From Candidatus Zambryskiibacteriota bacterium (GTDB lineage Bacteria > Patescibacteriota > Minisyncoccia > Phycocordibacterales > WO2-35-19): a stretch of 57,943 nucleotides of DNA. Location of the stretch: contig JAFGCQ010000016.1 in the NCBI GenBank assembly GCA_016932555.1, forward strand, positions 1 through 57,943. The letters are read 5' to 3'. A program made the translations under genes and the position numbers. Positions 25,915 to 43,380 of the stretch are shown piece by piece. The notes under the pieces were generated by a model that searched no databases, was not told where the DNA came from, and worked only from the letters and a program-made list of their open reading frames with translations. Numbering within the stretch: the first letter of the stretch is position 1; each line of letters starts with the position of its first letter.

Positions 25915-27573
25915 ATGTTACAGGAGAAAATCAACAAAAAAAACAAGGTCTTTGTAGGTATTTTATTAATTATTATTTTTTTATTTAGTTTTGGTGTTCA
26001 CTATTCTCTTTATGAAATTAAAGGTTTTTCTCAAATTGAATATTTCAATCTTTTAATTGCCAAGAACTGGGCAGAAACAGGAGAACTTTCTTATGAAAAC
26101 GCGGAAAACGTTGTCCTCTCTACAGAAAATATAAAGATAAATGGAGTGCCAACTAATCTAGGTAATAAATTAACTTTCTATCTTTATGGCTCTATGTTCC
26201 GCGTTTTTGGTTTTCATCCTGATTTACCAATTTATACATCTTTCGTTCTATATTCGTTAGCTGTGGTTTTTATATTTTTGATTGTAAATAGAGCTTTCAA
26301 TTTAAAAACTGGCTTAACCGCTGTTTTGTTGATGAATTCGGTTCCTTTCGTTTTACCCTATTCTCAACTTGTTGGCCGACACGAATGGGCTTGGTTTTTT
26401 ATGATCCTAGCCGCTTTTTTCTATTTCTGGCCCAAAAAAAGAAAATACCAATATTTGGTTCTAAGTGGCTTATTTTTAGGTCTTTCAGCGGCTACTCGTA
26501 ATAGTTTTCTTGTAGTTTTTCCAGCGTTTTTCATTATGGAACTTTGGCAATATAGAAAATCAACTAAATTAATAATCCAAAGAGAATTAATCTTACTGTT
26601 TTCATTTTTAATCATTATTTTACCGTTAATTGGTAATAATGCTTATATAAAAGCCACACTCGGTATTTCTACGGGAGAACATTATGAATCCTTCACTAAT
26701 TTTGTTCATCTTTTTCCAGATCCATACACCTTTCATTATGAAAAAAATATTTATATAGATGAACTTATAACAAACAAAAATTCATTTTCAGGAGGTGAAT
26801 TTCGGCTTTGGGGTGATTTAGGTTCTTTTTTAGACGAATATGGTTATGATATCGGATTTTTTAAGGGAGAAATAATAACTCGCGCCTATTCTCTATTTAT
26901 TTACTTAAAAGGTCTATTTTTATCACTTATTGTATTTGGCGGTATTTTAACTTGGTTTTTAATTTTTATCGGTTTTAGAGAATTAGTGAAAAAAAAGGAA
27001 TACATCTTTCCTTTATTTGGAATAATATTCTTCATCTGTTGGCTAATTCTTTTAGTTTTTCTAAAAACTTCTAATTATACTCATTTGCTCGCTTTATCTT
27101 TGCCGATTACTATCTTAATGAGTTATGGATTAGTAAGATTATCTGAGATTATTTCCGACTCCATAACTTTCAAGAAAATAAAACCGAGTTTTATCTCTTG
27201 GGTTATTGTTTTGATATTTGTAATTATGTTTGCTCAAATAAGTTGGTGGACTATCCGCGAGCTCTCGGCAAATAGTGGATTAAAAAATTCATTGATCAAT
27301 TTTTCCAAAACAGAGCTTAAAAAATCTACCATAGACTGGAGCGAAGTTACTATGGTTGGATATAGCAAAGAAGAGACTGATCTGCTCACCTATTACCTAA
27401 ATCAAAATTTTATTTTCTTTGATGAAGAAACTGTAAAAAAATTGGCTGAGGAGAGAAAATTAAATTCAGTACTAAAAGAATATAATATTTCTGGATATAT
27501 AGGATTCGACGATAAAACTTCTGAAATTATTAAGAAAAATAGTGGTGATCTAAAAGAATACAAAATCTATTGA
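25915..27573 (+). CDS. Polytopic GT-C-fold membrane glycosyltransferase candidate (ArnT/PMT, GT39-like)
   Basis: 552 aa, about 11+ TM helices, with a C-terminal soluble ~120 aa. The call rests on architecture and context only. Confidence 0.45.
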   Translation: MLQEKINKKNKVFVGILLIIIFLFSFGVHYSLYEIKGFSQIEYFNLLIAKNWAETGELSYENAENVVLSTENIKINGVPTNLGNKLTFYLYGSMFRVFGFHPDLPIYTSFVLYSLAVVFIFLIVNRAFNLKTGLTAVLLMNSVPFVLPYSQLVGRHEWAWFFMILAAFFYFWPKKRKYQYLVLSGLFLGLSAATRNSFLVVFPAFFIMELWQYRKSTKLIIQRELILLFSFLIIILPLIGNNAYIKATLGISTGEHYESFTNFVHLFPDPYTFHYEKNIYIDELITNKNSFSGGEFRLWGDLGSFLDEYGYDIGFFKGEIITRAYSLFIYLKGLFLSLIVFGGILTWFLIFIGFRELVKKKEYIFPLFGIIFFICWLILLVFLKTSNYTHLLALSLPITILMSYGLVRLSEIISDSITFKKIKPSFISWVIVLIFVIMFAQISWWTIRELSANSGLKNSLINFSKTELKKSTIDWSEVTMVGYSKEETDLLTYYLNQNFIFFDEETVKKLAEERKLNSVLKEYNISGYIGFDDKTSEIIKKNSGDLKEYKIY

Positions 27574-28508
27574 TTAAACAGCGGTTTTTTTAAAAAACAA
27601 AATAGACCAATTAAAGCAACGAAGACAGACATAAGAAAAACCAATAATGATAACGCTACAGCTAATTCCTTGGAAACCGCAAAAACAGAAAGTAGAGATA
27701 TAAAAACTAATTCCCGCGTTCCAAGCCCAGCAACAGAAATAGGTAAAAGTGTTAAGAAAGAAGACAGAGTCACTATTGAAGCTATGTAAATAAAAGGTAC
27801 TATATTTAAGCCTACAGAAAGTGCTAGCAAATAAACAATTAAATAATAAGTAAGCCATCCTAAAAGAGTAAGGGCGAAAATCCAGGCATATTCTTTAGTA
27901 CGATAAACTTGAAGTTCATTTAAAAATTCCTGAGAATTCAACTGCCAATAATCCTTGTATTTAGGGGGAATAAAAAAATAAAAGACTTTTTTCAGAAACG
28001 CTCTTATGATTTGATTTTTGAAAACCAAAAAAATCAAAAGGACTATAAGAGCTAAAATTAGACCAATGTAAAAAATTTCACTTTTAAGGATTTGCAAAAA
28101 CAAAAACATTGAAAAATAACCGAAAATTAGGAGAAAAAAGATATCAGCTAATCTATCTAAGACAACACTCACAAAAGATTTACCAATAGAATATCCTGCC
28201 TTGGTAAGATACAATACTCTACTTGCCTCACCTAATCTGCCCGGAGTAAACATACCTATATAAACACTAGAAAGATACATAAGATATGACTCATAAACAG
28301 AATAATTTATTCCCTGTTTTCTCATTAAAAATCTCCAACGTAAAGCACGAACAAATCCAAAAAACAAAACCAATAAAACTGCTAATATAAATTTAAAAAA
28401 ATCTATTTGAGGTCGGAGTTCTTTATAATAAGAAAAATCTAATTTGCTCAAAATAAACACAAAAAGCAATATACCAATTAAAAAAGAATATTTTTTAAGA
28501 AATTTCAT
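27567..28508 (-). CDS. Lysylphosphatidylglycerol-synthase-TM-region/UPF0104 'flippase-like' membrane protein
   Basis: 313 aa. 'AVLLVLFFGFVRALRWRFLM' and 'TPGRLGEASRVLYL' are typical of the LPG_synthase_TM (TIGR00374-like) family. Confidence 0.65.
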   Translation of the reverse strand: MKFLKKYSFLIGILLFVFILSKLDFSYYKELRPQIDFFKFILAVLLVLFFGFVRALRWRFLMRKQGINYSVYESYLMYLSSVYIGMFTPGRLGEASRVLYLTKAGYSIGKSFVSVVLDRLADIFFLLIFGYFSMFLFLQILKSEIFYIGLILALIVLLIFLVFKNQIIRAFLKKVFYFFIPPKYKDYWQLNSQEFLNELQVYRTKEYAWIFALTLLGWLTYYLIVYLLALSVGLNIVPFIYIASIVTLSSFLTLLPISVAGLGTRELVFISLLSVFAVSKELAVALSLLVFLMSVFVALIGLFCFLKKPLFNQ

Positions 28509-29191: not shown

Positions 29192-29554
29192 TTATCTTTT
29201 TACTATAACAACATCCCCAAAAAATTTTCTATTTTTTATTTTCACTATTTCAAAACCATTTTTTATATAAAAATTAATTGCAACTTTATTATCTTTCCTT
29301 ACTTTAGCCCAATTAGATTTTGATCGTTTTAAAAGTTCAGTTCCCACATTTTTATTACGATAATTTCTATCCGTAGCTATTAAAACTATTTCATCACCAT
29401 TTTCAATTAGAAAACCTATAATTAAATTATCAATTTCAGTAACAATTCCCGGAAAAAACAAAAAAGGTATTCGTTTAAAAAACATCGGAAAAGAATGCTT
29501 GGTAATTTTAGCAATAGTTAATATATCTTTAAAGTTTTTTTTTCTTATCCTCAT
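29192..29554 (-). CDS. GNAT-family N-acetyltransferase
   Basis: 120 aa. Motif A-like 'TDRNYRNKNVGTELLKR' and 'AINFYIKNGFE'. Confidence 0.7.
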   Translation of the reverse strand: MRIRKKNFKDILTIAKITKHSFPMFFKRIPFLFFPGIVTEIDNLIIGFLIENGDEIVLIATDRNYRNKNVGTELLKRSKSNWAKVRKDNKVAINFYIKNGFEIVKIKNRKFFGDVVIVKR

Positions 29555-30981
29555 GAAAACTTATTAAGAATTAGAGCCTTGCCCATATTTAGCTGTCGCC
29601 AAAGCTGAGTAAAACTACGTATACTAAAAAGGCGTCGGATCATATAACTTGATCTTATATAAAACTTTTTATTAGCCATTTTCACAAACTCGGTAACTTC
29701 TTTTTCTGGTAATTCTTTAGTATCTAGAGACGGTGCTCCGTCTTTTTCTTTACCTTTCATAAATCTATCCCAATATTTGCTATCAATTTGATTATTTGCA
29801 ATAGCCCATAAAAAAAGCTCCGTACCTGGAATGATAATAGTTTTGCTAAATACCGCAAAAGCCGGATCAATTTCTAAAGCTAAATCTAGAGTCTTTTGTA
29901 TAGTTTCTTTGGTTTCCTCAGGAGAGCCCATCATAAAATATCCAACCATCTCCATACCAATTTTTTTACATATTTTGGCACATTTAATTGATTGTTCTTT
30001 AGTAATTCCTTTATTGAGAACTTTGAGTATTCGGTTATCCCCCGCTTCAAATCCAAAACGTATCCGGTAACAGCCAGCTTTTTTCATCTTTGATAAAACT
30101 TCTTCATTAATCGTATCTACTCTGGAACGACATTCCCAAACGATTTTTAGTCTTCTCTTCAAAATTTCATCACATACCTCACTAACCCATTGTTTTCTTA
30201 CAATAAAATTATCGTCAAAAAACATAAACTCCCTTATATCTTCTTCCTTATAAATTTTTTCAACTTCATCTATAAGATTCTGGGGGCTCCTCACTCTCCA
30301 ATTTTTACCCATACGGTTTTTCCTATCACAAAAACTGCAATTAAATGGGCAACCTCGAGTCGCGATAACCGTAGCAAAATGTTTTTCTATGGTAAAAACA
30401 TCAAAATACCTATCTTTAGATGGCAGTAAGTGTCTGGCCGGAAATGGTATTGAATCTAAATTTTCGATCAAAGGTCTGGGATTATTTATTTTCACTTCCC
30501 CTTTCTCTTTGTAAGCCAAACCCAAAATATCTGAAAAATTGCCCTTTCCTTTTTCTAGAGCTTTTACAAGTTCGACAACTGTCACTTCGCCTTCGCTTAT
30601 TACCGCCAAATCAAAGACTCCGTACTCTAAGCTCTCTCTCGGCATGCAAGTTACGCCGGGACCGCCAACAATGAGTTTAATATTGGATTTTATTTCTTTA
30701 ATTTTTTTAGCCAAATCATTAGCTGCTACAAAAGTCCAAGTCATGATGTAAAAACCAACAACATCAGGTTGAAATTCTTTTGTTGTAGATTCAATTATAT
30801 TCCAATAGTCCTTTTCCGCATCACAATCAACTATCTTTACCCCATGCCCATTTTTTTCCAGAACTGAAGCGATATAACAAAGACCGAGCGGAGGGTATAC
30901 ACCTCGGTTTTTTTCTGTTTCTTTGGAATAATGGCCTATCTCGGCTTGAACCAAGCTGGGATTGATAAGAAGAATACGCAT
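29551..30981 (-). CDS. B12-binding-domain radical SAM protein (class B rSAM), paralog 2
   Basis: 476 aa. 'MRILLINPS...PPLGLCYIASVLEKNGHGVKIVD' and 'TRGCPFNCSFCD'. Its ATG shares 1 nt with the upstream TAA (TAATG). Confidence 0.85.
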   Translation of the reverse strand: MRILLINPSLVQAEIGHYSKETEKNRGVYPPLGLCYIASVLEKNGHGVKIVDCDAEKDYWNIIESTTKEFQPDVVGFYIMTWTFVAANDLAKKIKEIKSNIKLIVGGPGVTCMPRESLEYGVFDLAVISEGEVTVVELVKALEKGKGNFSDILGLAYKEKGEVKINNPRPLIENLDSIPFPARHLLPSKDRYFDVFTIEKHFATVIATRGCPFNCSFCDRKNRMGKNWRVRSPQNLIDEVEKIYKEEDIREFMFFDDNFIVRKQWVSEVCDEILKRRLKIVWECRSRVDTINEEVLSKMKKAGCYRIRFGFEAGDNRILKVLNKGITKEQSIKCAKICKKIGMEMVGYFMMGSPEETKETIQKTLDLALEIDPAFAVFSKTIIIPGTELFLWAIANNQIDSKYWDRFMKGKEKDGAPSLDTKELPEKEVTEFVKMANKKFYIRSSYMIRRLFSIRSFTQLWRQLNMGKALILNKFS

Positions 30982-31895
30982 TATTTTCTATAACTAATTT
31001 GATCGGCTAAAAACCCAAATATTATAATCTGGACACCAACTATTATTAAAATGGTAATAGCCGAATCTCCTAACACAGTATTCATGCCGAGCAGAATCAA
31101 AACGCCAATCCATATGCCTAAAACAATTGAAAATAAACCAACAAAGAAAAAGCTTCTTAGGGGTTTAAAATGAATGTACATTCGAAATATTATTGGTAAA
31201 ACATTCATTGGATATTTCAAACCAGCTTTTATAAAAGAATCACCAGCTTTTCTTTTTTTGAAAACAGTAGATACCTCCATAACCCTCATATGTTTACCCC
31301 AAGAATCAATAATAAGTTGTTGAGTTTCGTTATAGTCTTTTATAATATTGAAAATTTGCAAGTATCTTTTATGAAAAGCCATAAGACCGGTAGTAGCATC
31401 AGTGATTCTAAGCCCGGTAATATTAGAGACCAGCCAGGCAAAGAACTTGTTTCCGCATTTTCGATAAAAAGGCATCTTATACTCTAATCCTCCCATAAGT
31501 CGTGAGCCAAAAACACAATCCGCCCGATCTTCTAAAATTGGTCTGACTACTTTATCAATTTCTTCTGGCGGATTCTGCATATCTGCATCAATTTTTACAG
31601 CAATATCAGCCCCCATTTCATAGGCAGTTTGCATACCTGTTCTAGTAGAAGCTCCTAGCCCTCGATTGTAAGGATGAACAACAATCTTTTTAACTCCAGC
31701 CTCTTTGGCTAACTGCGCAGTCTTATCTTTAGAACCATCATCAACGACAATAGTTTCTAATACATAATCTTGATTTTCGCCAGCTACATAGAGTTCGCTT
31801 ATTTTTTTAATCACATCAACAATTGAGTCCTCTTCGTTGTAAGCTGGTATAAAAACTACCACATAAGGTAGATGATATTTTTCAAATTTAGCCAT
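30981..31895 (-). CDS. GT2 polyprenyl-phosphate sugar synthase-like glycosyltransferase (ArnC/GtrB/DPM1-like) with C-terminal TM helices
   Basis: 'VVFIPAYNEEDSI', 'VVDDGSKDKT', 'KIDADMQNPPEE', and two C-terminal hydrophobic helices. Confidence 0.8.
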   Translation of the reverse strand: MAKFEKYHLPYVVVFIPAYNEEDSIVDVIKKISELYVAGENQDYVLETIVVDDGSKDKTAQLAKEAGVKKIVVHPYNRGLGASTRTGMQTAYEMGADIAVKIDADMQNPPEEIDKVVRPILEDRADCVFGSRLMGGLEYKMPFYRKCGNKFFAWLVSNITGLRITDATTGLMAFHKRYLQIFNIIKDYNETQQLIIDSWGKHMRVMEVSTVFKKRKAGDSFIKAGLKYPMNVLPIIFRMYIHFKPLRSFFFVGLFSIVLGIWIGVLILLGMNTVLGDSAITILIIVGVQIIIFGFLADQISYRK

Positions 31896-33015
31896 GTTGA
31901 ATAATATTTTTTATTAATTTTATCATATAATCCAATTGTTTCTTTGTCATTCCTGGATACATTGGTAAAGTAACGATTGATTTTGAAAGTTTTTCGGTTA
32001 TTGGTAAATCACCTTTTTTGTAGCCATAATTTTTCATATAAAATGTTTGAAGATGCACGGGAGGGTCAAAATGAACAGAAGCTTCAATACCATTTTGCTT
32101 TAGTTTTCTCACAAATTCATCCCTGTTACCCCTTTTCAGCTTTATTGTATACATTTGGTAAACATTTTTACAATCCTTAGCTTCTGTAGGAGTTTCAATT
32201 TCTGAGATATCTTTTAAATGCTTAGTCAAATAAGCCGCCTGCTTTCTTCTCATATTATTCATTTTGTCTATCTTTGACATCTGTTCAACCCCAATAGCAG
32301 CCAAAAGATTGCTCATCCTAAAATTATAACCCGCCATCGTGGCAGATCTAAACCAAGGCTTAGCTGCCTTAATTCTTTGACTAGTAGATTTAGATATACC
32401 ATGACCAACCAAAGTTTGGATTTGCGTCAATAGATTTTTATCATTGGTTGTAACCATACCACCTTCACCAGTAGTAATATTTTTGGTTGGAAAGAAAGAA
32501 AAACAGCCGATAGTAAATGATCCAGTCTTTTTATTTTTAAAAGTAGCCCCTATCGCCTCAGCAGAATCCTCTATAACATAAAGTTTGTGCTTCTTGGCGA
32601 TTTCTATAATCTTATCCATCTTACAGGCTTGTCCGGCAAAATGTACTGGCATTATAGCTTCTGTATTTTTAGTAATCTTTTTTTCGATGTCATTCGGATC
32701 AATATTTCCAGTAGCAAAATCTATCTCGGCAAATACCGGCTTGGCACCAGCGGCAACAACGGCATTAGACGAAGCTACAAAAGTAAAACTTGGCAATATA
32801 ACTTCACCCTTTATGCCTAATGTCTTTATAACAACAAAAAGTGCTGAAGCGCAAGAATTCATACTTAAGGCATACTTGGAACCTATATATCGAGCAAATT
32901 TTTCTTCGAACTCTTTATTTTTTGGTCCATGAGTTAACCAGCCTGAATTAAGAACAGCATCAACGGCTTTATGTTCTTTATCGTCAATAAAAGTTTTTGA
33001 CAGAGGAATTTTCAT
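31888..33015 (-). CDS. DegT/DnrJ/EryC1/StrS-family sugar aminotransferase (ArnB-like)
   Basis: 375 aa. 'SGWLTHGPKNKEFEEKFA', 'VIEDSAEAIGA' and 'SFFPTKNITTGEGGMV'. Confidence 0.85.
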   Translation of the reverse strand: MKIPLSKTFIDDKEHKAVDAVLNSGWLTHGPKNKEFEEKFARYIGSKYALSMNSCASALFVVIKTLGIKGEVILPSFTFVASSNAVVAAGAKPVFAEIDFATGNIDPNDIEKKITKNTEAIMPVHFAGQACKMDKIIEIAKKHKLYVIEDSAEAIGATFKNKKTGSFTIGCFSFFPTKNITTGEGGMVTTNDKNLLTQIQTLVGHGISKSTSQRIKAAKPWFRSATMAGYNFRMSNLLAAIGVEQMSKIDKMNNMRRKQAAYLTKHLKDISEIETPTEAKDCKNVYQMYTIKLKRGNRDEFVRKLKQNGIEASVHFDPPVHLQTFYMKNYGYKKGDLPITEKLSKSIVTLPMYPGMTKKQLDYMIKLIKNIIQHG

Positions 33016-34010
33016 TATTTTTTAAAAGCTTTTTTAAACAAACCAGTGGTTTTTATATAATTCACATATTCTTTCAATCCTTCTTCTAGTTGATACTTAG
33101 GCTCATAACCAAGAAGTTTCCTGGCTTTGGAAATATCTAGAGAACCTCTTATTGGCCGGTTTAAATCAGTCGGTTTGATTTCAGTCTTTACTTTTATAGG
33201 AAGAATTTTATCTAAAATTTCAGCAAATTCCTTGGCACTTTTACCTTCTCCGGCCGTAATATTAAAAGTTTGATTTGCTGCATTTGGTGATAATGTGGCC
33301 AAAACAAATCCATGAGCAATGTCTGTGATATAAGTAAAATCTACTTTATCTTCTCCTCCATTATACAATCCTAAGGTCTCACCAAGCAAAGCTTTCTCCA
33401 AAAAAATTTGACTAACTCGACGATTAACATCAGTAGGACCATAAACCGCTGAAGGCCTTATTATAACATGCTCAATGCCGAATTTTTTACTAAAACTCCT
33501 GCTTAAAATCTCGCACGAGAGCTTAGTGCCTCCATATATATCAATAGGCAAAGTTGGATGATCTTCGTCTGCTGGATCGTACTTAAAATGACCGTAAACA
33601 AAACTTGATGAAGAATATAAAAATCTCTCTACCGAATTAGAATACCTTATTGCTTCTAAAACATTGATATGACCATTGAGATTTATTTGGATAGCATCTT
33701 CAAAAAATTCATCTGAAGCGGTAGCTAAGGGGATAGCGACCATATTTATAACTATTTCTGGTTTGAAATCCCTCATAGTATCTATCAATTTGGGTTTATC
33801 ATAAACATCACCACGAACAATTTTTGCTTTATCTTTAATTCTCTTTAATCTTTTAGGCAAATAAAAATTATAGAAACTTTGTTCTCTGGGGATGTAGCAG
33901 GAAAAATTATCATAAACTAAAACTTTATGATTAAGAGTTAGTAATTCTTTGGCAATATTTGAACCAATAAAACCGGCTCCGCCAATTATCATAACCTTTT
34001 TGGCTTTCAT
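33015..34010 (-). CDS. NAD-dependent NDP-sugar epimerase/dehydratase (SDR)
   Basis: 'VMIIGGAGFIGSNI' and catalytic 'YGGTKLSCE'. Confidence 0.8.
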   Translation of the reverse strand: MKAKKVMIIGGAGFIGSNIAKELLTLNHKVLVYDNFSCYIPREQSFYNFYLPKRLKRIKDKAKIVRGDVYDKPKLIDTMRDFKPEIVINMVAIPLATASDEFFEDAIQINLNGHINVLEAIRYSNSVERFLYSSSSFVYGHFKYDPADEDHPTLPIDIYGGTKLSCEILSRSFSKKFGIEHVIIRPSAVYGPTDVNRRVSQIFLEKALLGETLGLYNGGEDKVDFTYITDIAHGFVLATLSPNAANQTFNITAGEGKSAKEFAEILDKILPIKVKTEIKPTDLNRPIRGSLDISKARKLLGYEPKYQLEEGLKEYVNYIKTTGLFKKAFKK

Positions 34011-34052
34011 TACACCTTAAATCTATCATTTGATTGATTTTTTGCAACTTCT

Positions 34053-35402
34053 TTACAAAAGCCATTTGTTTAATAATTTTTCTTTAAAATGCTCGAAATT
34101 TGTGAGACCATCAACAACGCCATTAACTAAAATAATGGCAAGAGATAGACCTAAAATTTTAAACCATTCTTTATTTTTTTCCTTTAAGCTCAAAATAAAG
34201 TAGGAAGTAAAAACAGCCAACAGTGGGTAAATCTGGAAGCGATAGCGAGTTTCTACTACCGTAATAAACAAAATTAAAGGTGTTAAGATGGTAAAAGCTA
34301 ATAAATAATATAGAAATTTTTCTTTTAATTTAAAAGCTCGAATAATACCAGCCAAACTAAAAATTAAAACCAAAAATGAAAAAATAGCAGAACTTAAAAC
34401 AAAGAGAGCCTGCTTCCAGCCCGAACTGTAAAACCAAAACCCCATCGGCCTCAAAACGCTGAAATATTTATTTGCTCTAGATAAACTTAAAGTAACAAAG
34501 TTTGCCGGATGATTAAAAACATAATTTTTAAACTCAGTAATTGATTTTTCATTTATTTCTTTCATATCGTGGGTATTTATAAAAGTATCTATTTCTTCAT
34601 TTGTTTCTTGTTCTCCGTTAGCTCCAACATGATTGCCTATCCAAAAATTAGCCGAACCCGCTACACCAAAAGGTATAATATTTTTATGAATTGAATAATT
34701 TCTTACAGTCCAAGGAGTAAAAACAACTATCAATATAAACCCATAAATAAATAAACTTTTCCAGTCTTTTTTTCTTAAGAAATAAAAGATTACAACTGGT
34801 AATATAAATAACAAAGGAGGTCTAGCTAAAACCGCCAAACTACTAATAAAACCCAGTCCCCAAAGCCATTTTTTATCTTGGACATTTAGATATTTAAAAA
34901 ATGCGTAGAAAAATAAACATACAAAAAAAAGATACAAAGTTTCTGACATTAACATAGCTGATATTTCTATAAGATCGGGGTAAAAAGCAAAAACAGCAGC
35001 AGATAAAAGGGCTATTTTTTTCTTTTTTTCTTGATCCTTAAAGATCAGTATAACCGTTAGATATAGAAATAATGTACTGACAACTCTCAATAAAGCTTGA
35101 ATTATCCAAACTGCTTTATAAGAATGCCCAAAAATTTTATAGATACCCGCTAGAAAGTATTCATAAATCGGACCGACTCTTAGGAGTGCATTGTCACTGT
35201 TTATCGATACTTCAGGATTTTCGCGATATCCTATCCCATTAACAATATTTTGAGCTATAGTATCATAAGCATCAGCATCAACTAATGGTGTAATTTGAAA
35301 ATAAAAAGCGTAACTAATACTCAAAATAAAACAAGCTAAAAGTATACCAATCAGCCATTTATTTTGAGAAATAAAATCTTTTACATTATTTTTATTGATC
35401 AT
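34053..35402 (-). CDS. GT-C membrane glycosyltransferase, family 39 / ArnT-like
   Basis: 449 aa. The first-loop acidic motif 'PLVDADAYDTIAQNIVNGIGY' and the ~11 TM architecture are typical of ArnT/PMT_2 proteins. Confidence 0.7.
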   Translation of the reverse strand: MINKNNVKDFISQNKWLIGILLACFILSISYAFYFQITPLVDADAYDTIAQNIVNGIGYRENPEVSINSDNALLRVGPIYEYFLAGIYKIFGHSYKAVWIIQALLRVVSTLFLYLTVILIFKDQEKKKKIALLSAAVFAFYPDLIEISAMLMSETLYLFFVCLFFYAFFKYLNVQDKKWLWGLGFISSLAVLARPPLLFILPVVIFYFLRKKDWKSLFIYGFILIVVFTPWTVRNYSIHKNIIPFGVAGSANFWIGNHVGANGEQETNEEIDTFINTHDMKEINEKSITEFKNYVFNHPANFVTLSLSRANKYFSVLRPMGFWFYSSGWKQALFVLSSAIFSFLVLIFSLAGIIRAFKLKEKFLYYLLAFTILTPLILFITVVETRYRFQIYPLLAVFTSYFILSLKEKNKEWFKILGLSLAIILVNGVVDGLTNFEHFKEKLLNKWLL

Positions 35403-35408
35403 TTTTAT

Positions 35409-36821
35409 TTACTTTGCCGCGAAGAGCCAACTGTAAATCCTTTTTAAAATAACCTTGAAGTGTTTTGGACTTTTTATTTCGCTTACAAATTTAAACATAA
35501 TTTTTGGTCGAAGATAAAACCTCAACAAAGCCCGGCGGCGCAGAACTTTCATTTCTGTCTTAGTAAAACCTGGTGGCGCATAAACCGCATCAGCCAAAAC
35601 AAAATGGGCCCAGTCTTCATCTGACATCTCTTTAAGTTCGCCTTTTTCCATGAGTTTTTGAGTGGCTTCGGTGCCGGGAAAAGGTTTGAAAAGAGAAAAG
35701 CCGGCTCTTTTTAAATCTAGACTCATGGCAAATTTTATAGTTTCCATAATATCCAATTTAGTTTCGGTCGGATAACCGATAATAAAGAAACCGGAAACTT
35801 CGAGACCGCAGTCCTTTATAAGTTTTATTTTTTCTCTTATTTTTGCTGTAGTCAAGTTTTTTCTCATATCTTTAAGAATTTTATCAGAACCAGATTCTAT
35901 ACCTACTGAAATGCTGTAAAGGCCAGCTTTCTTCATAGCCTTAAGAAGTTTTTCGTCTAAAGAATCCAACCTAACACCATTGGGGCAGGTCCAGGTTATA
36001 TCCAGATTATTTTCTTTGAGTTTTTGGCAAAATTCGTAAACCAATTCATGATAAAAAGTAAAATTATCATCTTCAATGTGAATCTCTCTGATACCATAGT
36101 CATGATAAAGAATTTTAATTTCTTCAATTACTTTATCTACACTTCGATGCCTTATCTTCTTGCCAGAAATTAAATAGCCAGCACAGTAAGTGCAAGAAAA
36201 AGGACAACCTCGAGTAATGATAAGAGGGGCAATCGGATAATTTTTAAAAAACCCGCCGTGCGGCGCTAGAGGATATTTGTCTGGACGAATTAAATCCCAA
36301 CTCGGCATACCAAGTTCATCTAGATCTTCTACAAAAATTGGGGCATTAATTTTTGTTTGTTCTCCTGATCGCCAGATTAAACCTGGAATTCCAGACAAAT
36401 TCTCGCCTTGCGTTTGATTTTCTGCTATCAAAGCCAAGAGTTTTGTTAAACCAATCTCTGCCTCTCCTCTGAAAGCAAAATCTGCTTTTGGTAAAAATTC
36501 GAAAATATTTTGAGGACTGCAGGAAGGATGCGGGCCGCCTAAAATTATTTTCGCTCGAGGTAAAACTTTTTTAATGGAATTTATGTAGTCTTTGACGCGA
36601 ATTACATGAAAAGTGAAAATCTGCAGACCAACAACATCAGGTCTCTCCTTCTGTAAGATATTTTCAAATTTCTCCAGAGTTAAATTTTCTTTGATACCAT
36701 CAAGAATTTTTACATCATGTTTTCCTCTTATAGCAGTAGCTAAATAACCTAAACCAAAAGGCGGAATAAGCTCATCCGATTCGGAATTCGGCTTCATAAG
36801 AAGAACCTTAAGCCGTTTCAT
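35409..36821 (-). CDS. B12-binding-domain radical SAM protein (class B rSAM), paralog 3
   Basis: 470 aa. 'KVLLMKPNS...PPFGLGYLATAI' and 'TRGCPFSCTYCA'. TAATG 1-nt overlap with the upstream GT2. Confidence 0.85.
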   Translation of the reverse strand: MKRLKVLLMKPNSESDELIPPFGLGYLATAIRGKHDVKILDGIKENLTLEKFENILQKERPDVVGLQIFTFHVIRVKDYINSIKKVLPRAKIILGGPHPSCSPQNIFEFLPKADFAFRGEAEIGLTKLLALIAENQTQGENLSGIPGLIWRSGEQTKINAPIFVEDLDELGMPSWDLIRPDKYPLAPHGGFFKNYPIAPLIITRGCPFSCTYCAGYLISGKKIRHRSVDKVIEEIKILYHDYGIREIHIEDDNFTFYHELVYEFCQKLKENNLDITWTCPNGVRLDSLDEKLLKAMKKAGLYSISVGIESGSDKILKDMRKNLTTAKIREKIKLIKDCGLEVSGFFIIGYPTETKLDIMETIKFAMSLDLKRAGFSLFKPFPGTEATQKLMEKGELKEMSDEDWAHFVLADAVYAPPGFTKTEMKVLRRRALLRFYLRPKIMFKFVSEIKSPKHFKVILKRIYSWLFAAK

Positions 36822-37537
36822 TACTCAAAAAGATTAAATCTAATAATGTGCCAAATAGCAGCAAAACCATCTTTCCAGTTTATCTTTTTACCTTGCTCGT
36901 AAGTCCTCCCATAAAAAGAAATTCCCACTTCGTAAAGTCGCCATCTACCTTTGGCAATACGAGCGGTAATTTCCGGTTCAATACCAAATCTCTTAGATTT
37001 TAATTCGTGCTTAAAAGAGTCAGCCACCTTTTTGGTAAAAGCTTTGTAACAGGTTTCCATATCGGTAAAACTCAAACCAGTAAGCAAGTCAGAAAGTAGG
37101 GTCAAAAAAATATTACCCAAAAAGTGATAAACGTAAAATACTCTCTTGGCATCACCAGAAAGTATTCTAGAACCATAAACAACATCTGCCTGATTATCTA
37201 AAATCGGTTTTAAAATTTTTTTAAAATCTTCCGGATTATACTCTAAATCAGCATCTTGAATGATAAGAATATCTCCGCTAGCTGCTAATAACCCAGCTTT
37301 TAAAGCGGAACCTTTACCTTCATTTTTTTCTTTAAAGACGATTTTAAGATTTCCACCGGTAGAATTTTTTTCTAATTCTCTCAAAATATCTCGCGTACCA
37401 TCAGTAGAACAATCATCAACAATAACTATCTCTTTTTGCAAGGGTAAATTTACTGCTTGTACTCTTTTGAGGATTTCTTGAATTGTATTTTTTTCGTTGT
37501 AGGCCGGGATAACAACGGATAAAATATTATTTTTCAT
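36821..37537 (-). CDS. GT2 glycosyltransferase (dolichyl/polyprenyl-phosphate sugar synthase-like, no TM tail)
   Basis: 'LSVVIPAYNEKNTI', 'IVDDCSTDGT' and 'QDADLEYNPED'. Confidence 0.8.
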   Translation of the reverse strand: MKNNILSVVIPAYNEKNTIQEILKRVQAVNLPLQKEIVIVDDCSTDGTRDILRELEKNSTGGNLKIVFKEKNEGKGSALKAGLLAASGDILIIQDADLEYNPEDFKKILKPILDNQADVVYGSRILSGDAKRVFYVYHFLGNIFLTLLSDLLTGLSFTDMETCYKAFTKKVADSFKHELKSKRFGIEPEITARIAKGRWRLYEVGISFYGRTYEQGKKINWKDGFAAIWHIIRFNLFE

Positions 37538-37552
37538 TATTTTATGATTGTA

Positions 37553-38653
37553 TCATTCTAAAAAACCTAAAGGTAGGTTGACAAAATCCAATATGAATGA
37601 GTCCATAAAATAACTTGAGATCATATATAATGCCAAAATAGGAAGTGTAATACATAAGCGAAGATTTCTACTCAATTTTTTTATAAATAAACTGGACACC
37701 AAGATTGCAGCGGGCATAGTAATAAAAAGGACTCTAGTTACTACCGGCCACAGAAGAACCGAGATACAAGAAAAAATAACTAGCCATATGAATATCAAAT
37801 CTCTATTTATAATTTTGCTTTTAATCATATTTTTTGTGCGATTAAGTAAAAGATAAAAACCTGGGAAAAACAAGAGCCAGCCAAAGTTAAATATCGAACC
37901 AAAAGATTTTATAAATTCTAATGTTTTATTTTGGAAACTATATTTTTTTTGTTCTAGAAACCAGTCGAGATAAGTGTAATCAAATTTCAAAAAACCATAA
38001 ATATTTAGCAAAAGAAACGGACCAAAAGATATGCACCCAGTAATAATTACCTTCTTTAGTATTTTTAGCCAATCTGTCCAATCCCTAAATATAATTATTC
38101 CGAATATGACAACATAGGCCACGAAGGCATACTCCTTATATAAACCCCCTAGACCCACTAGAACAGAAGACAAATAAAGCCACTTATCACTCTCATTATC
38201 ATTTTTAAAATACTTATAAGAAAAATATAAAGAGACCATATAAAAAAACCAGCCCCCCATATCCATCATATAAGCAAGACCAAAAACAACTACAGCATAA
38301 TTAACTACTAAAAAAAGAGCGCCTAAAAAAGCCGTTAGTTTATCTCCAAACATTTCTTTAATAAGCAGGTAGGCCGATAAACCCATGAATACATAAAAAA
38401 TACCATTAAGTAATAACCAAGAGACCTTAAAGCTGTTAGTAAACAAATCAAAAAACATAATTGATTGCAATCCAAGATAAGTGCTGACAATCATCATTGG
38501 CATAAATTCTTCAGGAACTATACCCGTTTTTAATACTTCAATACTATCAGTATAATGGAAACTATCTCCCGCTATTTGTGGCTGAAGAAGACAAATAGAA
38601 AAAACGGCTAATAATATAAGTAGTCCAGAAATTATAATCTTATCTTTCGTCAT
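37553..38653 (-). CDS. Polytopic membrane protein, possibly a GT-C glycosyltransferase or polymerase
   Basis: 366 aa, about 10 TM helices. No motif that I can name, so the call rests on context only. Confidence 0.35.
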   Translation of the reverse strand: MTKDKIIISGLLILLAVFSICLLQPQIAGDSFHYTDSIEVLKTGIVPEEFMPMMIVSTYLGLQSIMFFDLFTNSFKVSWLLLNGIFYVFMGLSAYLLIKEMFGDKLTAFLGALFLVVNYAVVVFGLAYMMDMGGWFFYMVSLYFSYKYFKNDNESDKWLYLSSVLVGLGGLYKEYAFVAYVVIFGIIIFRDWTDWLKILKKVIITGCISFGPFLLLNIYGFLKFDYTYLDWFLEQKKYSFQNKTLEFIKSFGSIFNFGWLLFFPGFYLLLNRTKNMIKSKIINRDLIFIWLVIFSCISVLLWPVVTRVLFITMPAAILVSSLFIKKLSRNLRLCITLPILALYMISSYFMDSFILDFVNLPLGFLE

Positions 38654-38654
38654 T

Positions 38655-39515
38655 TTATTTTTTTCTGCCTAAAATATAAAGTTGAGTGGCTACCGCTTCC
38701 GCTCCAGGCATTTTCATAAAAAAATAATCTAAATATTTGAAAGGACCTAAAACTAACATAAAAACATGCGCTAAGAAGGGAGCCATCTTTTGAGAACCAA
38801 AAGAAAAAATTACTCCAAACCAGTAAGCCAAAAACATCAGAAGGGCGCTCCAAGGTCCAGAACGAACTCCTGATTTTACTATTTCCAAATCTGGAAACAA
38901 GCACTTTAGCCCAGAAATGGTCCATCGATTATAGTCATACGGCGAAGCATGATAAGGTTGAATAAAAGGCACACTTACATAAGCGTAGCCTCCTGGTTTT
39001 AAAATTCGCATAATTTCTTGTGATATTTTTTGTGGATTTGGAACATGTTCAAGAACCGCCTCAGAAACTATAATATCTGCGGAATTACTACAAAATGGTA
39101 GTTCTTTTCCATCAGCCACAATGTCAACTCCAGAAAAAGGAAAAATGTCAACATTTATAAATTCTTCACTAACTCTCCCTGGCCCAGAGCCAATATCAAC
39201 CAAAACACCATGTTTATCCCTATATTTAAAAATCATACGGGGTCCATTAACAGTCATCATCACCGGGCAAAAAATATGCCAAAGTAAATAATACAGTTTG
39301 GGAGATTTTTTAAAAAAAGATTTTAACCAATTAATACCCGAATTATGACTGCTAACATTTTTATCTAAAGTTTCTTCTTCTACAAAAATAATCCTCCCAG
39401 CAGCATCCTTTTTAAAAAGGCCGTGAGTTTTGCAAATATAACCAGACTCTACTTCTTTAAGCCCAGATCTACAAAACGGACAACAGAGAATATCAGCATA
39501 TTTTCTCATATCCAT
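38655..39515 (-). CDS. SAM-dependent methyltransferase with an N-terminal Trm112-like zinc ribbon and a C-terminal hydrophobic segment
   Basis: 'LCCPFCRSGL...YICKTHG' (CxxC ribbon), 'LVDIGSGPG', 'IIVSEAVLEHVPNP' and 'LKPGGYAYVSVP'. Confidence 0.75.
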   Translation of the reverse strand: MDMRKYADILCCPFCRSGLKEVESGYICKTHGLFKKDAAGRIIFVEEETLDKNVSSHNSGINWLKSFFKKSPKLYYLLWHIFCPVMMTVNGPRMIFKYRDKHGVLVDIGSGPGRVSEEFINVDIFPFSGVDIVADGKELPFCSNSADIIVSEAVLEHVPNPQKISQEIMRILKPGGYAYVSVPFIQPYHASPYDYNRWTISGLKCLFPDLEIVKSGVRSGPWSALLMFLAYWFGVIFSFGSQKMAPFLAHVFMLVLGPFKYLDYFFMKMPGAEAVATQLYILGRKK

Positions 39516-39569
39516 TTAAATTAACATAAAAAATCTTTATCGAAAAGAGTCGTTATTTTTAGCCTTATT

Positions 39570-40628
39570 TTAGGAATCTTGCTTTTGTTTATTTATTTCT
39601 AAATATAATTTATCAACCAAAATATTTAAGCTGTGTTTTTCTAAGATGTATTCTTGAATTCTATCTTTGATTATATTTTTTCGATTATCATCTTCTTCAA
39701 TCCAGAAATTTATTTTTGTCGCTACATCTTCAGCTGTATTTTCCGCAATTAGAATTTCTTCAATTTCTCCACCAAGAGATTTATTAATAATAACCGGCAG
39801 GCAGCCGCAAGCCGCCGCCTCTAAGATAGTCTTGTCAAAGCTGCCAGATGGAGTAAGATTTACAAAAATTTCGTGACTGCTATAAATCTTTGGAGTTTCA
39901 TAATTTGGCACTGCTTTGTAAAATTTTATTTTATCCTTTAAGTTAAGATTTTTAACTTTTGTTTTTATCGAATTAAAATAAGCCTTGTCTTTCGGTAAAG
40001 CATCCCCATAAAAATCACAAATAAAATTAACTCCTTTTTTATTCAAAAGATCCAATGCTTCAATCAACAAGTCAGGGTTTTTGATGGGTGATATCCTTCC
40101 CAAAAAAAGTATTCTATCTTTACATGACTCATAATTCATAATTCTTAATTCAGTATTGAAAACACCGTTATCTATTCCTACTGGCATTAGTTTGGTTTTT
40201 TTATATTTAGCTACATAAGCAAATTTTGAGGTACAAAAGACCTTATGCGACATCCAAACGGCAATATCGGTAAACAAATTTCCTATTTTGTGGTTCCTCC
40301 AAAGATAAACTTTTTTACCTATAAGTTTCCAAAAAAATCCGCCCAATAAAACATATTCTTGATTCATATGAACTAAAACTGAATCATATTCCCGATTAAG
40401 ACCAAGTATCAGATTAAAAAAGTTTTTTAAATATTTTATTCTATTTTGACCACTTTCTTTACCTAAAGAATAAATTTTAACGTTTTCTGGTAGATTATAA
40501 TTACCTTTTTCCAAACAAATCACTGATATTTTTTGGAATTTTTCCGATAATTTCAATATCCAATTATGAAAAAAACCCAAAATTGGATCGTCTATATCGA
40601 TTTTTTGGGTGAAAATCAAAATTCTCAT
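39570..40628 (-). CDS. Glycosyltransferase family 4 (GT-B)
   Basis: 352 aa. 'MRILIFTQKID' and C-terminal 'GSFDKTILEAAACGCLPV'. Confidence 0.75.
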   Translation of the reverse strand: MRILIFTQKIDIDDPILGFFHNWILKLSEKFQKISVICLEKGNYNLPENVKIYSLGKESGQNRIKYLKNFFNLILGLNREYDSVLVHMNQEYVLLGGFFWKLIGKKVYLWRNHKIGNLFTDIAVWMSHKVFCTSKFAYVAKYKKTKLMPVGIDNGVFNTELRIMNYESCKDRILFLGRISPIKNPDLLIEALDLLNKKGVNFICDFYGDALPKDKAYFNSIKTKVKNLNLKDKIKFYKAVPNYETPKIYSSHEIFVNLTPSGSFDKTILEAAACGCLPVIINKSLGGEIEEILIAENTAEDVATKINFWIEEDDNRKNIIKDRIQEYILEKHSLNILVDKLYLEINKQKQDS

Positions 40629-40816
40629 TCTATTTTTATAGCTTTAACTGGGCAATTGTCAATAATCTTCTTTACTTCTTCTATATCTTCTAAAGACAAA
40701 TCGCCTACAATTTCAGCTTTGAAGCTATCTTGATTGATTTTAAATAAATTTGGATTACAATTTTCACAAAAACCGCATCCTATACATTTTTCTTGATCTA
40801 TTGATATTTTTTTCAT
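40625..40816 (-). CDS. Small single-cluster [4Fe-4S]/[3Fe-4S] ferredoxin
   Basis: 63 aa. 'CIGCGFCENC' plus the distal 'CPVKAI'. Confidence 0.8.
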   Translation of the reverse strand: MKKISIDQEKCIGCGFCENCNPNLFKINQDSFKAEIVGDLSLEDIEEVKKIIDNCPVKAIKIE

Positions 40817-40825
40817 AAAGAAATT

Positions 40826-41947
40826 CTAACTTATTCTATTAATAATGTCAGCTAAAGATTTTTTATAAAATTCTAGATACTTTTCGTGATTTGGTAGAGT
40901 ATTAACTGATTGTTTAGCTTTTTCTCCCAATTTTTTAGCTAAATCTTTATTATTCAAAAATTTTTTAATAGCTTCCACCAAAGATTTTCTATCATCAACT
41001 TTAATTATTAAACCATTTTCTTTATTTTTTATAAACTCTCCAGCACAGCCTACATCGGTCATTATTATCGGGCAACCACAAGCAGCGGCTTCAATCACCG
41101 TCATTCCCCAACCTTCATAATTTGAAGTTAAAAGAAATATATCCGAAGTTTTATAATAAGAGGCCAAATCTGAAGACCAAGGTTCAAAAATAATATTAGA
41201 GTATAAATTAAAATTTCTTACCAAATCTTTCAAATTATTTTTTTCTTTCCCTTCACCAACAATAATTAGTCCGGTTTTAGGATTGTTTTTTATAATATAA
41301 GTCATTGATTTTATAGCTAAATCAATATTTTTTTCCTGACTAATCCGCGAAGCCATCAAAATTATCGATCCAAATTGAGGATATTTTTGCTTGAGATTAA
41401 TTTTCAATTCTGCAGATTTAAATTTCTCAACATCGATAAATATTGGCAAAATTACTGGATTACAATTCAATTTAATTTTGGATAAAGATTTTTTTATCCT
41501 CTCAGACACTACCCTAATACCATCTGCTTGGGGTAAAAGAAATTTAGAAACTAAAACTCTAATTTTATTAGAAAAAGATTCTTTCCAATAATAAGAACTG
41601 AATAAATCTCCATGAATTTGACATTGCCAAGGCAGTTTATATTTTCTTTTTATGAGCCAGCCTATGTGTCCAGTATCGGCTGGATCTTGAGTTATAACTA
41701 AATCATGTTTCTCTTTTTTTATGATTTCTCTAACTAATTTTAAAGCGTCTCGAGTATAGGTTAATCGACTGTTTGAAGCTGTAGCGAAAATGCCTAATTT
41801 TCCAAAAATTATCGGCTTAAAATGTTTCCTAGTCAAAACTATTACTGATAATTTGTCACAAAATCCTGTATACTCTTTCAACCTCTCTAAACTTGCCGAA
41901 TTCGGCTCAAAAATACCCTTATCCAGATTTACTATTAAAATTTTCAT
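40826..41947 (-). CDS. Glycosyltransferase family 4 (GT-B)
   Basis: 373 aa. 'TSNYEGWGMTVIEAAACGCPIIMTDVG' (EX7E region). Confidence 0.8.
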   Translation of the reverse strand: MKILIVNLDKGIFEPNSASLERLKEYTGFCDKLSVIVLTRKHFKPIIFGKLGIFATASNSRLTYTRDALKLVREIIKKEKHDLVITQDPADTGHIGWLIKRKYKLPWQCQIHGDLFSSYYWKESFSNKIRVLVSKFLLPQADGIRVVSERIKKSLSKIKLNCNPVILPIFIDVEKFKSAELKINLKQKYPQFGSIILMASRISQEKNIDLAIKSMTYIIKNNPKTGLIIVGEGKEKNNLKDLVRNFNLYSNIIFEPWSSDLASYYKTSDIFLLTSNYEGWGMTVIEAAACGCPIIMTDVGCAGEFIKNKENGLIIKVDDRKSLVEAIKKFLNNKDLAKKLGEKAKQSVNTLPNHEKYLEFYKKSLADIINRIS

Positions 41948-43380
41948 TTACTTTTCACTAAATTATAAATTCTTCTTAAAATTCTGCCAGTCCAATTTTT
42001 TTCTTCGATAGCTATCCCCGAAAGCCATTCAATGAGATAAATATCAAAAGGTAGAGCAAAAAATCTATGTTGAATACGCCATTCAAACCATTTATTAATT
42101 GGTCCCAATTTAAATTTTAATAATTTAAAATATTCGCGAATCCGCCAAACTTTTTCTCCATTAACCCAAGGAGAAGAAAAATCTCTTCGAAAACGATCAA
42201 TTTTGCCCCAATCTTCAGTTCTCTCGGGTGGCACAAAACCATGCTGGCAAGCAAATTCATACATCGTCGAACCCGGATAAGGCATATAAGCACCAAAAGT
42301 AATGGCTGATTCTGGATGAAGTTTATAAATTTTGTAAAAAAGATCAATAGTAGATTCGAATTCTATTTTAGTTTCTGTCGGCAAACCAACAATAGCTGAG
42401 TAACTAGCAGGTATATTATATTTTGCCAAAATTCTAACGGTTTTAATAATTTGCTCTACAGTAATCTTCTTATTGATTAGTTTTAAAATTCTGTCGCTAC
42501 CAGATTCCACGCCAATCAAAATATCAAAAACTTTATTGGTTTTAAATTCTTTAGCTAGTTTATCATCGATCATATCTATTCTAGCCTCTAAATGAGCTGG
42601 TAATTTAATACGCCTTAAAATTTCTAATGCTCTATCACGACTAACCATGAAATTATCGTCATAAAATTTAATGGCATCAATTTTATATTTGCTTTTTAAA
42701 AATTCTATATCTTTAACTACTTGTTCTATTGACCAAGCTCGCCAACGATTCTTGTTAAAAATCCGATTGTAACAAAAAGCGCAATTAAAGGGACACCCTC
42801 GACTAGTTTTGTAAGCAATTACTCTTTTGTATTTATCTAACTTATAAATAAATTTCTCTAAATCCAGAAGTGAAAAATCTAGAGTCCACTCATCAAGATT
42901 CTTAATAAATGGTCGGGCCGGATTTATTTTGGAATTGTTCATTTCTTTGTAACCTAAACCTAAAACTTCATTTAAAGGTTCTTTATTCTTTAATTTTCTA
43001 GAAAATTCAATTACCGTTTCTTCCCCTTCCCCAATAATTACAAAATCAATATAATTCTCAGACAAGCACTGTTCTGGCAGAAGCGAAGGATGAATACCGC
43101 CCCAGACAATTTTAATATTTGAATAAGATTTAATTTTTTTAGACAACTCTGCGCTGTACAAAGTTTGGCGACCAGTCATAACTGAAAGTCCCACGTAGAG
43201 CGGTTTTTTATTTGCAACCACTTTAGCTGTTTTCTCTATCTCTTTTTCAGTGATATTTATAAGTTCTACCTCAAAATTATTCTTTTTCAAGGCGCTACCA
43301 ATTGATAAGATACCTAGCGGTAAAATCTTTTCAGAATGATCCTCAGAATCATTTATTTGCACTAATATGATTTCACTCAT
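41944..43380 (-). CDS. B12-binding-domain radical SAM protein (class B rSAM), paralog 4
   Basis: 478 aa. 'ILPLGILSIGSALKKNNFEVELIN' and 'SRGCPFNCAFCY'. ATGA overlaps on both sides. Confidence 0.85.
   Translation of the reverse strand: MSEIILVQINDSEDHSEKILPLGILSIGSALKKNNFEVELINITEKEIEKTAKVVANKKPLYVGLSVMTGRQTLYSAELSKKIKSYSNIKIVWGGIHPSLLPEQCLSENYIDFVIIGEGEETVIEFSRKLKNKEPLNEVLGLGYKEMNNSKINPARPFIKNLDEWTLDFSLLDLEKFIYKLDKYKRVIAYKTSRGCPFNCAFCYNRIFNKNRWRAWSIEQVVKDIEFLKSKYKIDAIKFYDDNFMVSRDRALEILRRIKLPAHLEARIDMIDDKLAKEFKTNKVFDILIGVESGSDRILKLINKKITVEQIIKTVRILAKYNIPASYSAIVGLPTETKIEFESTIDLFYKIYKLHPESAITFGAYMPYPGSTMYEFACQHGFVPPERTEDWGKIDRFRRDFSSPWVNGEKVWRIREYFKLLKFKLGPINKWFEWRIQHRFFALPFDIYLIEWLSGIAIEEKNWTGRILRRIYNLVKSK

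Follow-up and report, generated by a model that had tools for sequence, protein, structure and literature searches.

Pairing of a B12-domain radical SAM gene with a putative polyprenyl-phosphate glycosyl synthase gene in a bacterial surface-glycan locus: a candidate tailoring step for lipid-linked sugars

Why does a gene for a B12-domain radical S-adenosylmethionine (SAM) protein directly follow each of the two DPM1-like GT2 glycosyltransferase genes of a 608-kb genome? The question is raised by contig JAFGCQ010000016.1 of a Candidatus Zambryskiibacteriota bacterium, whose 57,943 nucleotides, taken as a whole, are the window of this study, and above all by cassette 2 (34053-39515, minus strand), in which genes for a methyltransferase, a GT-C glycosyltransferase, a GT2, a B12-domain radical SAM protein and another GT-C glycosyltransferase follow one another (Table 1). 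The suffix C denotes the members of this cassette (GT2-C and radical SAM-C), the suffix B those of a second pair, cassette 1, and L-numbers denote the related loci examined. A preliminary description of the window had taken the adjacency for a functional pair. What was observed or computed here comprises the domains and folds of the proteins, the layout of the operon, synteny and the way GT2 and radical SAM proteins have diverged together. Synteny across phyla, a single well-supported clade of partner GT2s and correlated divergence sustain that view, and we hold it likely that the two genes are functionally linked rather than neighbours by chance. On a further proposal, for and against which the balance appears about equal, cassette 2 would be a Gtr/Arn-type module for extracytoplasmic glycosylation with a co-evolving radical SAM tailoring enzyme.

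The contexts of six radical SAM homologue clusters and 80 genome loci were inspected. More than 100 protein clusters were 50-81% identical to radical SAM-C and came from Parcubacteria, with DPANN archaea at about 50%. Orthologues of the GT2 and the radical SAM protein adjoined in most of the loci examined from Parcubacteria and other members of the candidate phyla radiation (CPR) and from DPANN, in varying order and orientation. For the CPR and DPANN clade of radical SAM-C (26 sequences; support 98 in the Shimodaira-Hasegawa-like approximate likelihood ratio test, SH-aLRT), a GT2-C orthologue was the direct neighbour in 16 and stood about two genes off in a further four. The order GT2, radical SAM, GT-C was repeated in L001, L003, L008 and L020, and also in L022 and L023 with two genes between GT2 and radical SAM; the GT-C gene lay upstream instead in L010, L011 and L015. 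GT2 was often downstream in the archaeal loci, in several of them on the opposite strand (L005, L032, L054). The pair was found, in arrangements that again differed, in Omnitrophota as well (L034, L037 and L066, and L041 with one small open reading frame, ORF, between) and at one locus of Nitrospirota (L082). Three CPR genomes carried the radical SAM-C orthologue alone amid housekeeping genes (Mur ligase, FtsA, AlaRS); all three still encoded a 59%-identical GT2-C elsewhere, and in two of these genomes its neighbours were polytopic or GtrA-like membrane proteins. The retention of the pair despite rearrangement argues for a functional linkage. Comparative synteny, which the preliminary description had named as a check, thus spoke for the pair in CPR, DPANN, Omnitrophota and Nitrospirota, and the pair of cassette 1 was kept elsewhere too.

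The two proteins have also diverged together. In the GT2 tree the partners formed one clade of 28 (SH-aLRT 100), 24 of them beside a radical SAM gene, and the groupings inside this clade mirrored those of the radical SAM tree, with congruent topologies. Pairwise distances of the GT2 and radical SAM proteins from 27 loci were strongly correlated (Mantel r = 0.857, not equalled in 5000 permutations), a correlation that could partly reflect shared organismal history, which is a point against the proposed module.

Fusion proteins were searched with a concatenated query that was limited to the part matching radical SAM, and proteins of at least 636 aa were taken as candidates. None was found at the orthologue level; the fusions recovered were only about 30% identical, and their GT2 domains were generic and not DPM1-like. 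Among them, B/C-type radical SAM proteins were fused to a GT2 and a methyltransferase (P0121, P0142, P0187), to a GT4 (P0141), to methyltransferases in other cases, and to an LPG_synthase_TM flippase-like membrane domain (P0128, P0133). The opposite domain orders of P0128 and P0133 point to independent fusions, and these two sequences imply that such B/C-type enzymes would work at the membrane. Fusions at this level of identity support the general theme and not the specific radical SAM-C orthologue.

Several related loci carry additional genes beside the pair. In L002 (3658-5998), L022 (4681-6998), L023 and L024, which are CPR and Woesearchaeota loci, a gene for a second radical SAM protein (435-445 aa, weak B12 domain) was accompanied by a gene for a short-chain dehydrogenase/reductase (SDR) of 274-276 aa. 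The two genes, for proteins of 435 and 274 aa, were inserted between GT2 and radical SAM-C in L002, L022 and L023, and both stood upstream of radical SAM-C in L024. By analogy with AprD4/AprD3, a couple of dehydratase and reductase, this layout suggests a deoxygenation besides the radical SAM-C step. Directly downstream of the radical SAM-C orthologue, L010, L011, L015 and L017 had a gene for a protein of equal size, which in L011 was a 391-aa class-V aminotransferase resembling NifS/cysteine desulfurases (Pfam Aminotran_5, E 8.8e-75); this protein could be a sulfur source for Fe-S clusters or have the sugar as its substrate.

Within the window, the ORF coordinates and the minus strand were as first described. 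The start codon of the radical SAM-C gene overlaps the GT2-C stop codon by 1 nt (TAATG), and 6 nt separate the radical SAM gene from the following GT-C gene. The same TAATG form does occur at 30981, in cassette 1, as had been observed, but it loses its weight as a signature of the pair: TAATG also joins SDR and DegT aminotransferase genes at 33015, the operon genes are tightly packed and overlapping, and most other junctions are ATGA overlaps. The junctions therefore indicate general translational coupling. A promoter and terminator scan of 33000-41000 gave no signal beyond the shuffled expectation.

The identity of radical SAM-C was approached by profile and by fold. Its B12-binding domain (PF02310) scored 68.9 bits against a cut-off of 32.1, and the cysteines of the CxxxCxxC motif (C206-x3-C210-x2-C213) were invariant across 30 homologues. 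An AlphaFold2 model built from 30 homologues had a predicted local distance difference test score (pLDDT) of 90, and Foldseek placed AprD4 first (template-modelling score 0.75-0.78, E 6.5e-28), followed by MgmA, TsrM, OxsB, CysS and TokK. By profile, AprD4 aligned to the radical SAM core only (residues 161-411), whereas the profiles of the other five also aligned over the N-terminal Rossmann domain. BchE and HpnJ gave the top NCBIfam scores, and the model for lipid biosynthesis B12-binding/radical SAM proteins matched as well; none of the NCBIfam equivalog cut-offs was approached (BchE 197 vs 481 bits, HpnJ (TIGR03471) 181.6 vs 577.6 bits, AprD4 (NF033070) 112.4 vs 500 bits). Since cobalamin-binding relatives align over the N-terminal domain, PF02310 is found at twice its cut-off and the Cys triad is invariant, the product is probably a true class B enzyme, with cobalamin binding predicted from sequence. 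In its modelled fold it resembles AprD4, and it is not a member of that family.

The GT2-C profile of 24 orthologues matched best to the dolichyl-phosphate mannose synthase (DPMS) of Pyrococcus furiosus (5mlz; E 9e-33, positions 2-227 of 232), then to ArnC and GtrB; these are the three solved polyprenyl-phosphate glycosyl synthases. AglJ and ArnC were the top NCBIfam models. By profile, GT2-C is thus assigned as a putative polyprenyl-phosphate glycosyl synthase. It has zero hydrophobic segments and no transmembrane (TM) domain, in which it presumably resembles PpgS and human DPM1; radical SAM-C has no predicted TM segments either.

The GT-C gene downstream of radical SAM-C had been called ArnT-like. 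Its GT-C fold was upheld: the PMT_2 score exceeds the cut-off, and an AlphaFold2 model from 10 orthologues (pLDDT 82; predicted template-modelling score, pTM, 0.85) matched GT-C enzymes exclusively at E <= 0.001 (AglB, PglB, STT3, ArnT, ALG9), with ALG12, DPY19, Emb and PMT following at weaker E-values. The ArnT identity was not upheld. No ArnT model was among the NCBIfam matches, which were only weak uncharacterised GT-C families, and ArnT (5f15) ranked 13th in Foldseek, behind oligosaccharyltransferases (TMq 0.51). On these profile and model comparisons the protein is assigned to the GT-C fold and the PMT_2 family and is not an ArnT orthologue. GT-C enzymes have their catalytic acid in the first outer loop after TM1. 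The orthologues share an invariant VDAxAYD motif in which D42 stands just after TM1, in the first outer loop, so that the GT-C catalytic features looked for in this protein were present, with D42 as the candidate catalytic Asp. The N-terminus is rich in Lys, as would be expected if it lies inside.

The further polytopic membrane protein noted upstream of GT2-C is indeed polytopic, with 8 hydrophobic segments, and that non-specific label can be sharpened, as its Pfam match is of the GT-C type (Table 1); the GT2 and radical SAM pair is consequently bracketed by two GT-C genes. An orthologue stands at the same position in L020 (372 bits). The first gene of the cassette encodes a methyltransferase that starts with a Cys-rich, zinc-ribbon-like segment (CCPFC...C..H) and has a single hydrophobic segment (residues 222-240). 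The Cys-rich segment and the Pfam domains agree with the zinc-ribbon methyltransferase, GT2 and B12-radical SAM calls of the preliminary description. A small methyltransferase gene upstream of GT2 was also seen in L001, L003, L017 and L023.

Table 1. Features of cassette 2, of its surroundings in the window and of related loci with no GT2 nearby
Feature	Coordinates	Strand	Length (aa)	Evidence or remark
GT-C fold membrane glycosyltransferase (PMT_2 family), downstream of radical SAM-C	34053..35402	-	449	Pfam PMT_2 E 3.7e-13, PMT E 5.3e-07
Radical SAM-C, B12-binding-domain radical SAM enzyme, class-B type	35409..36821	-	470	Radical_SAM PF04055 E 6.4e-30; B12-binding PF02310 E 4.4e-19
GT2-C, putative polyprenyl-phosphate glycosyl synthase (DPM1/PpgS-like)	36821..37537	-	238	Pfam Glycos_transf_2 (PF00535) E 1.6e-37
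Second GT-C-type (PMT_2) polytopic membrane glycosyltransferase, upstream of GT2-C	37553..38653	-	366	PMT_2 E 6.5e-10, PMT E 2.5e-07
Class I SAM methyltransferase, first cassette gene	38655..39515	-		Pfam Methyltransf_11 and Methyltransf_23
Cassette-1 pair, GT2-B and radical SAM-B	29551..31895	-		GT2 with two C-terminal TM helices (30981-31895), then B12-radical SAM (29551-30981)
LPG_synthase_TM flippase-like membrane protein	27567..28508	-		Pfam PF03706 E 5.5e-48; TIGR00374
Ferredoxin	40625..40816	-	63	ORF with CIGCGFCENC...CP; same operon, overlaps the start of the downstream GT4
No-GT2 loci: L045, L049, L051, L053, L058, L060, L064, L067, L072-L074, L078, L079, L086	3160..9747 (in L045)			Radical SAM homologues of Desulfomonile-like and other deltaproteobacteria; apparently another, uncharacterised role for the family

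Cassette 2 belongs to a larger unit. The source genome, recovered from a sediment metagenome, is in 33 contigs and 93% complete, and the window is one of these contigs, with a GC content of about 33%; the nearest database relatives of its genes are labelled Parcubacteria/Patescibacteria. Positions 16-46 kb form a single long minus-strand surface-glycan locus with GT4 glycosyltransferases, class I methyltransferases, two SDR/DegT aminosugar blocks and flippase-like genes, together with three GT-C genes, two DPM1-like GT2 genes, four B12-domain radical SAM genes and one small ferredoxin gene. The whole genome has four B12-domain radical SAM, two DPM1-like GT2 and three GT-C genes, all inside the window. 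Two of the four radical SAM proteins, A and D, are adjacent to no GT2. As judged from its sequence, the ferredoxin is a plausible candidate for the dedicated reductant of the four radical SAM enzymes. The candidate flippases of the locus are limited to the LPG_synthase_TM protein and a GtrA domain, the latter formed by residues 354-470 of the 43377-44795 product and fused to a glycosyltransferase-like protein.

The preliminary description further asked whether the two pairs had duplicated as units. The order SDR, DegT, GT2, radical SAM of cassette 1 was kept in L093, L094 and L095 (61, 57 and 49% identity), and L094 had both pair types side by side. Radical SAM-B and radical SAM-C were 31% identical; GT2-B and GT2-C were 34% identical over 176 residues, covering the catalytic domain only, and GT2-C lacks the two C-terminal TM helices of GT2-B. 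Radical SAM-B joined the C superclade weakly (support 45), GT2-B was not a supported sister of the GT2-C clade, and the GT2 partners of two B-clade radical SAM genes did not cluster together. At 31-34% identity and with no supported sisterhood of B and C, the trees gave the duplication no backing, an outcome that is indeterminate rather than a refutation. From these comparisons the two pairs appear to be ancient paralogues, for which duplication as a unit is possible.

The distribution of the gene is rare and patchy in the phylum. Of 300 genomes sampled evenly over the phylum, only 20 had any B12-radical SAM homologue, and none had a radical SAM-C orthologue of more than 40% identity. Most related GT2s occur in the absence of a radical SAM partner, so that the radical SAM protein is best seen as an optional add-on, and the patchy distribution across domains of life points to an accessory module that has spread horizontally. 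Neither a radical SAM homologue (E <= 1e-40) nor a GT2 homologue (E <= 1e-45) was present in any of the 16 genomes sampled from the same order or class. Cassette 2 looks like an accessory island, possibly acquired horizontally, and the same may hold for the entire glycan locus (16000-46000). A Proteobacteria metagenome-assembled genome (L036, 1-15485) had an unbroken run of nine or more B12-domain radical SAM genes surrounding a radical SAM-C homologue, and no GT2 was detected at that locus.

A working order can be proposed for cassette 2. The TM-less GT2-C would transfer a monosaccharide from a nucleotide sugar onto polyprenyl phosphate at the cytoplasmic face. On the same face, the translationally coupled radical SAM-C would then alter the lipid-linked sugar by radical chemistry at a C-H bond. 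Class B radical SAM enzymes most often catalyse C-methylation, which would be the default here; ring contraction of the HpnJ/Cds kind or an AprD4-like dehydration are the alternatives, and the AprD4 resemblance together with the radical SAM/SDR insertions of the variant loci keeps deoxygenation in play. Non-methylating class B members are not distinguishable by structural features (2026 review, PMC12931638). The membrane-associated class I methyltransferase may add another methyl group. The product would be flipped, possibly by one of the candidates elsewhere in the operon, and one or both GT-C proteins would pass the tailored sugar to a surface acceptor. The use by a GT-C of the donor modified by radical SAM-C, which the preliminary description had suggested, is kept here as part of what we infer, as are the substrate, the reaction and the cobalamin use of radical SAM-C and the nature of the sugar and the acceptor. 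A lipid-linked sugar as the substrate of radical SAM-C we rate as close to an even prospect, or somewhat short of it.

What else could the radical SAM protein act upon? Unlikely, in our judgement, is an action before the GT2: radical SAM-C would methylate, deoxygenate or epimerise a soluble nucleotide sugar, which GT2-C would then load. AprD4, the closest solved relative, works on a soluble sugar substrate, the class B sugar methylases GenK and Fom3 use soluble substrates (PMC12931638), and the second radical SAM and SDR of L002, L022, L023 and L024 resemble AprD4/AprD3. The conserved partner, however, is specifically a GT2 of the polyprenyl-phosphate type and not an enzyme of nucleotide-sugar metabolism; the radical SAM gene comes after GT2 in the co-linear operons, the fusions to flippase-like membrane domains suggest action at the membrane, and no gene for nucleotide-sugar metabolism lies within cassette 2 itself.

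A modification of the isoprenoid lipid, either the polyprenyl carrier or a membrane lipid, in place of the sugar appears improbable to us. Many class B radical SAM enzymes do use isoprenoid lipids, such as HpnP and HpnR (PMC13459092), and the NCBIfam matches named above (BchE, HpnJ and the lipid biosynthesis model) lean the same way, as does the deltaproteobacterial clade, where GT2 is absent and the neighbours of the gene encode an SGNH hydrolase and an amine oxidase similar to phytoene desaturases. A carrier lipid, though, is recycled and shared among pathways, so that its modification by each cassette would make little sense, and a sugar-bearing substrate in common accounts better for the specific co-divergence with a single GT2 clade.

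More improbable still is a tailoring of the acceptor (protein, peptide or polymer) or of a later glycan intermediate, with the link to GT2 arising from operon membership only. The window is one long glycan locus in which many GT4s stand together with methyltransferases and the four radical SAM genes, proteins A and D are not next to a GT2, and three CPR genomes have the radical SAM-C orthologue among housekeeping genes, all of which would fit. Adjacency to a single GT2 clade that is rearranged yet kept across two domains of life, plus co-divergence, nevertheless exceeds what membership of a common locus would give. Chance adjacency by gene crowding in a glycan island, where GT2 and radical SAM genes are both common and TAATG is generic, is scarcely credible and is contradicted by synteny and co-divergence, with orthologous pairs in dozens of loci (Parcubacteria, DPANN, Omnitrophota, Nitrospirota), the Mantel correlation and the existence of fusion proteins.

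Several points weigh against tailoring of a lipid-linked sugar by radical SAM-C as the preferred reading. A GT2-C-like gene (40-58% identity) was present in 51 of the 300 sampled genomes, and just 5 of these 51 had any B12-radical SAM homologue. A Desulfomonile-like clade of 14 sequences has 44-48% identical radical SAM proteins and no GT2 nearby; its context (an EPSP-synthase-family gene, hisB, hisH, an SGNH-like gene, radical SAM and an FAD amine oxidase) indicates that the family is not restricted to glycan loci. Positions 34053-39515 contain no small flippase of the GtrA or ArnE/F type. No FecCD/BtuC-type permease was detectable in the 93%-complete genome with its four B12-domain radical SAM proteins. 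The single metatranscriptome of the same study had none of the sampled sequence words. AprD4, whose solved structure comes closest, does not bind cobalamin and has a soluble aminoglycoside as its substrate (PMC12931638).

Were the preferred reading true, polyprenyl-phosphate-linked sugars would be a new class of radical SAM substrates, and extracytoplasmic glycosylation would gain a new tailoring step. It would also explain why several B12-type radical enzymes are kept by genomes of about 0.6 Mb with no detectable cobalamin uptake; the cell surface is probably central to the episymbiotic lifestyle of such organisms. As a tentative generalisation, which we think has somewhat less than an even prospect, the widespread clade of B12-domain radical SAM proteins would be a fourth component of Gtr/Arn systems that acts on the polyprenyl-phosphate-bound sugar by a radical C-methylation, ring contraction or deoxygenation, in a unit exchanged among CPR, DPANN and Omnitrophota. 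Such an exchanged unit would provide a portable diversification of surface glycans from few common nucleotide sugars. Our literature search brought up no radical SAM enzyme described together with a polyprenyl-phosphate glycosyl synthase and a GT-C, or in CPR glycosylation, and polyprenyl-, undecaprenyl- or dolichyl-linked substrates go unmentioned in two 2026 reviews; the combination of GT2, radical SAM and GT-C appears to be undescribed in print.

Radical SAM-C may finally be set beside known systems. With class B enzymes (MgmA, TsrM, TokK, CysS, GenK, Fom3) it shares an N-terminal B12-type Rossmann domain and a CxxxCxxC core, whereas it is only 17-23% identical to the characterised members and reaches no curated cut-off. 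AprD4 is a 1,2-diol dehydratase acting on paromamine, and AprD4/AprD3 carry out the C3' deoxygenation of apramycin. AprD4 has the closest solved fold and, like the proposed activity of radical SAM-C, works on a sugar ring; unlike AprD4/AprD3, cassette 2 has no SDR inside it, and the sequence similarity to AprD4 covers the core only and is below the cut-off. AprD4 is, moreover, a cobalamin-free radical SAM enzyme (PMC12931638).

HpnJ and Cds are radical SAM proteins that would remodel sugars after these have been joined to a membrane lipid, a proposal with knock-out support only (PMC13459092). In the hopanoid pathway HpnI attaches the sugar first and HpnJ acts after it, and HpnJ and Cds are proposed ring contractions (PMC13459092). 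HpnJ was among the top NCBIfam models for both radical SAM proteins of the window that were compared, B and C. Unlike the HpnI-HpnK-HpnJ pathway, the cassette has no deacetylase, and the HpnJ score is far below the cut-off; unlike that pathway and Cds, cassette 2 would use polyprenyl phosphate, which is a carrier rather than an end product, and a transfer by a GT-C would follow.

Three-component systems of extracytoplasmic glycosylation comprise GtrA/GtrB/GtrC, ArnC/ArnE-F/ArnT, PpgS/Rv3632/Rv3779 and the pentofuranose systems (PMC11127046). Like the Gtr and Arn systems, cassette 2 encodes a GT2 assigned as a polyprenyl-phosphate glycosyl synthase together with a GT-C transferase; unlike them, it has a B12-domain radical SAM gene between synthase and transferase, two GT-C genes and no small flippase of their type. 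Tailoring of a lipid-linked sugar before its transfer has precedents in ArnD and in DprE1/E2, the epimerase that converts decaprenylphosphoryl ribose to decaprenylphosphoryl arabinose (DPR to DPA).

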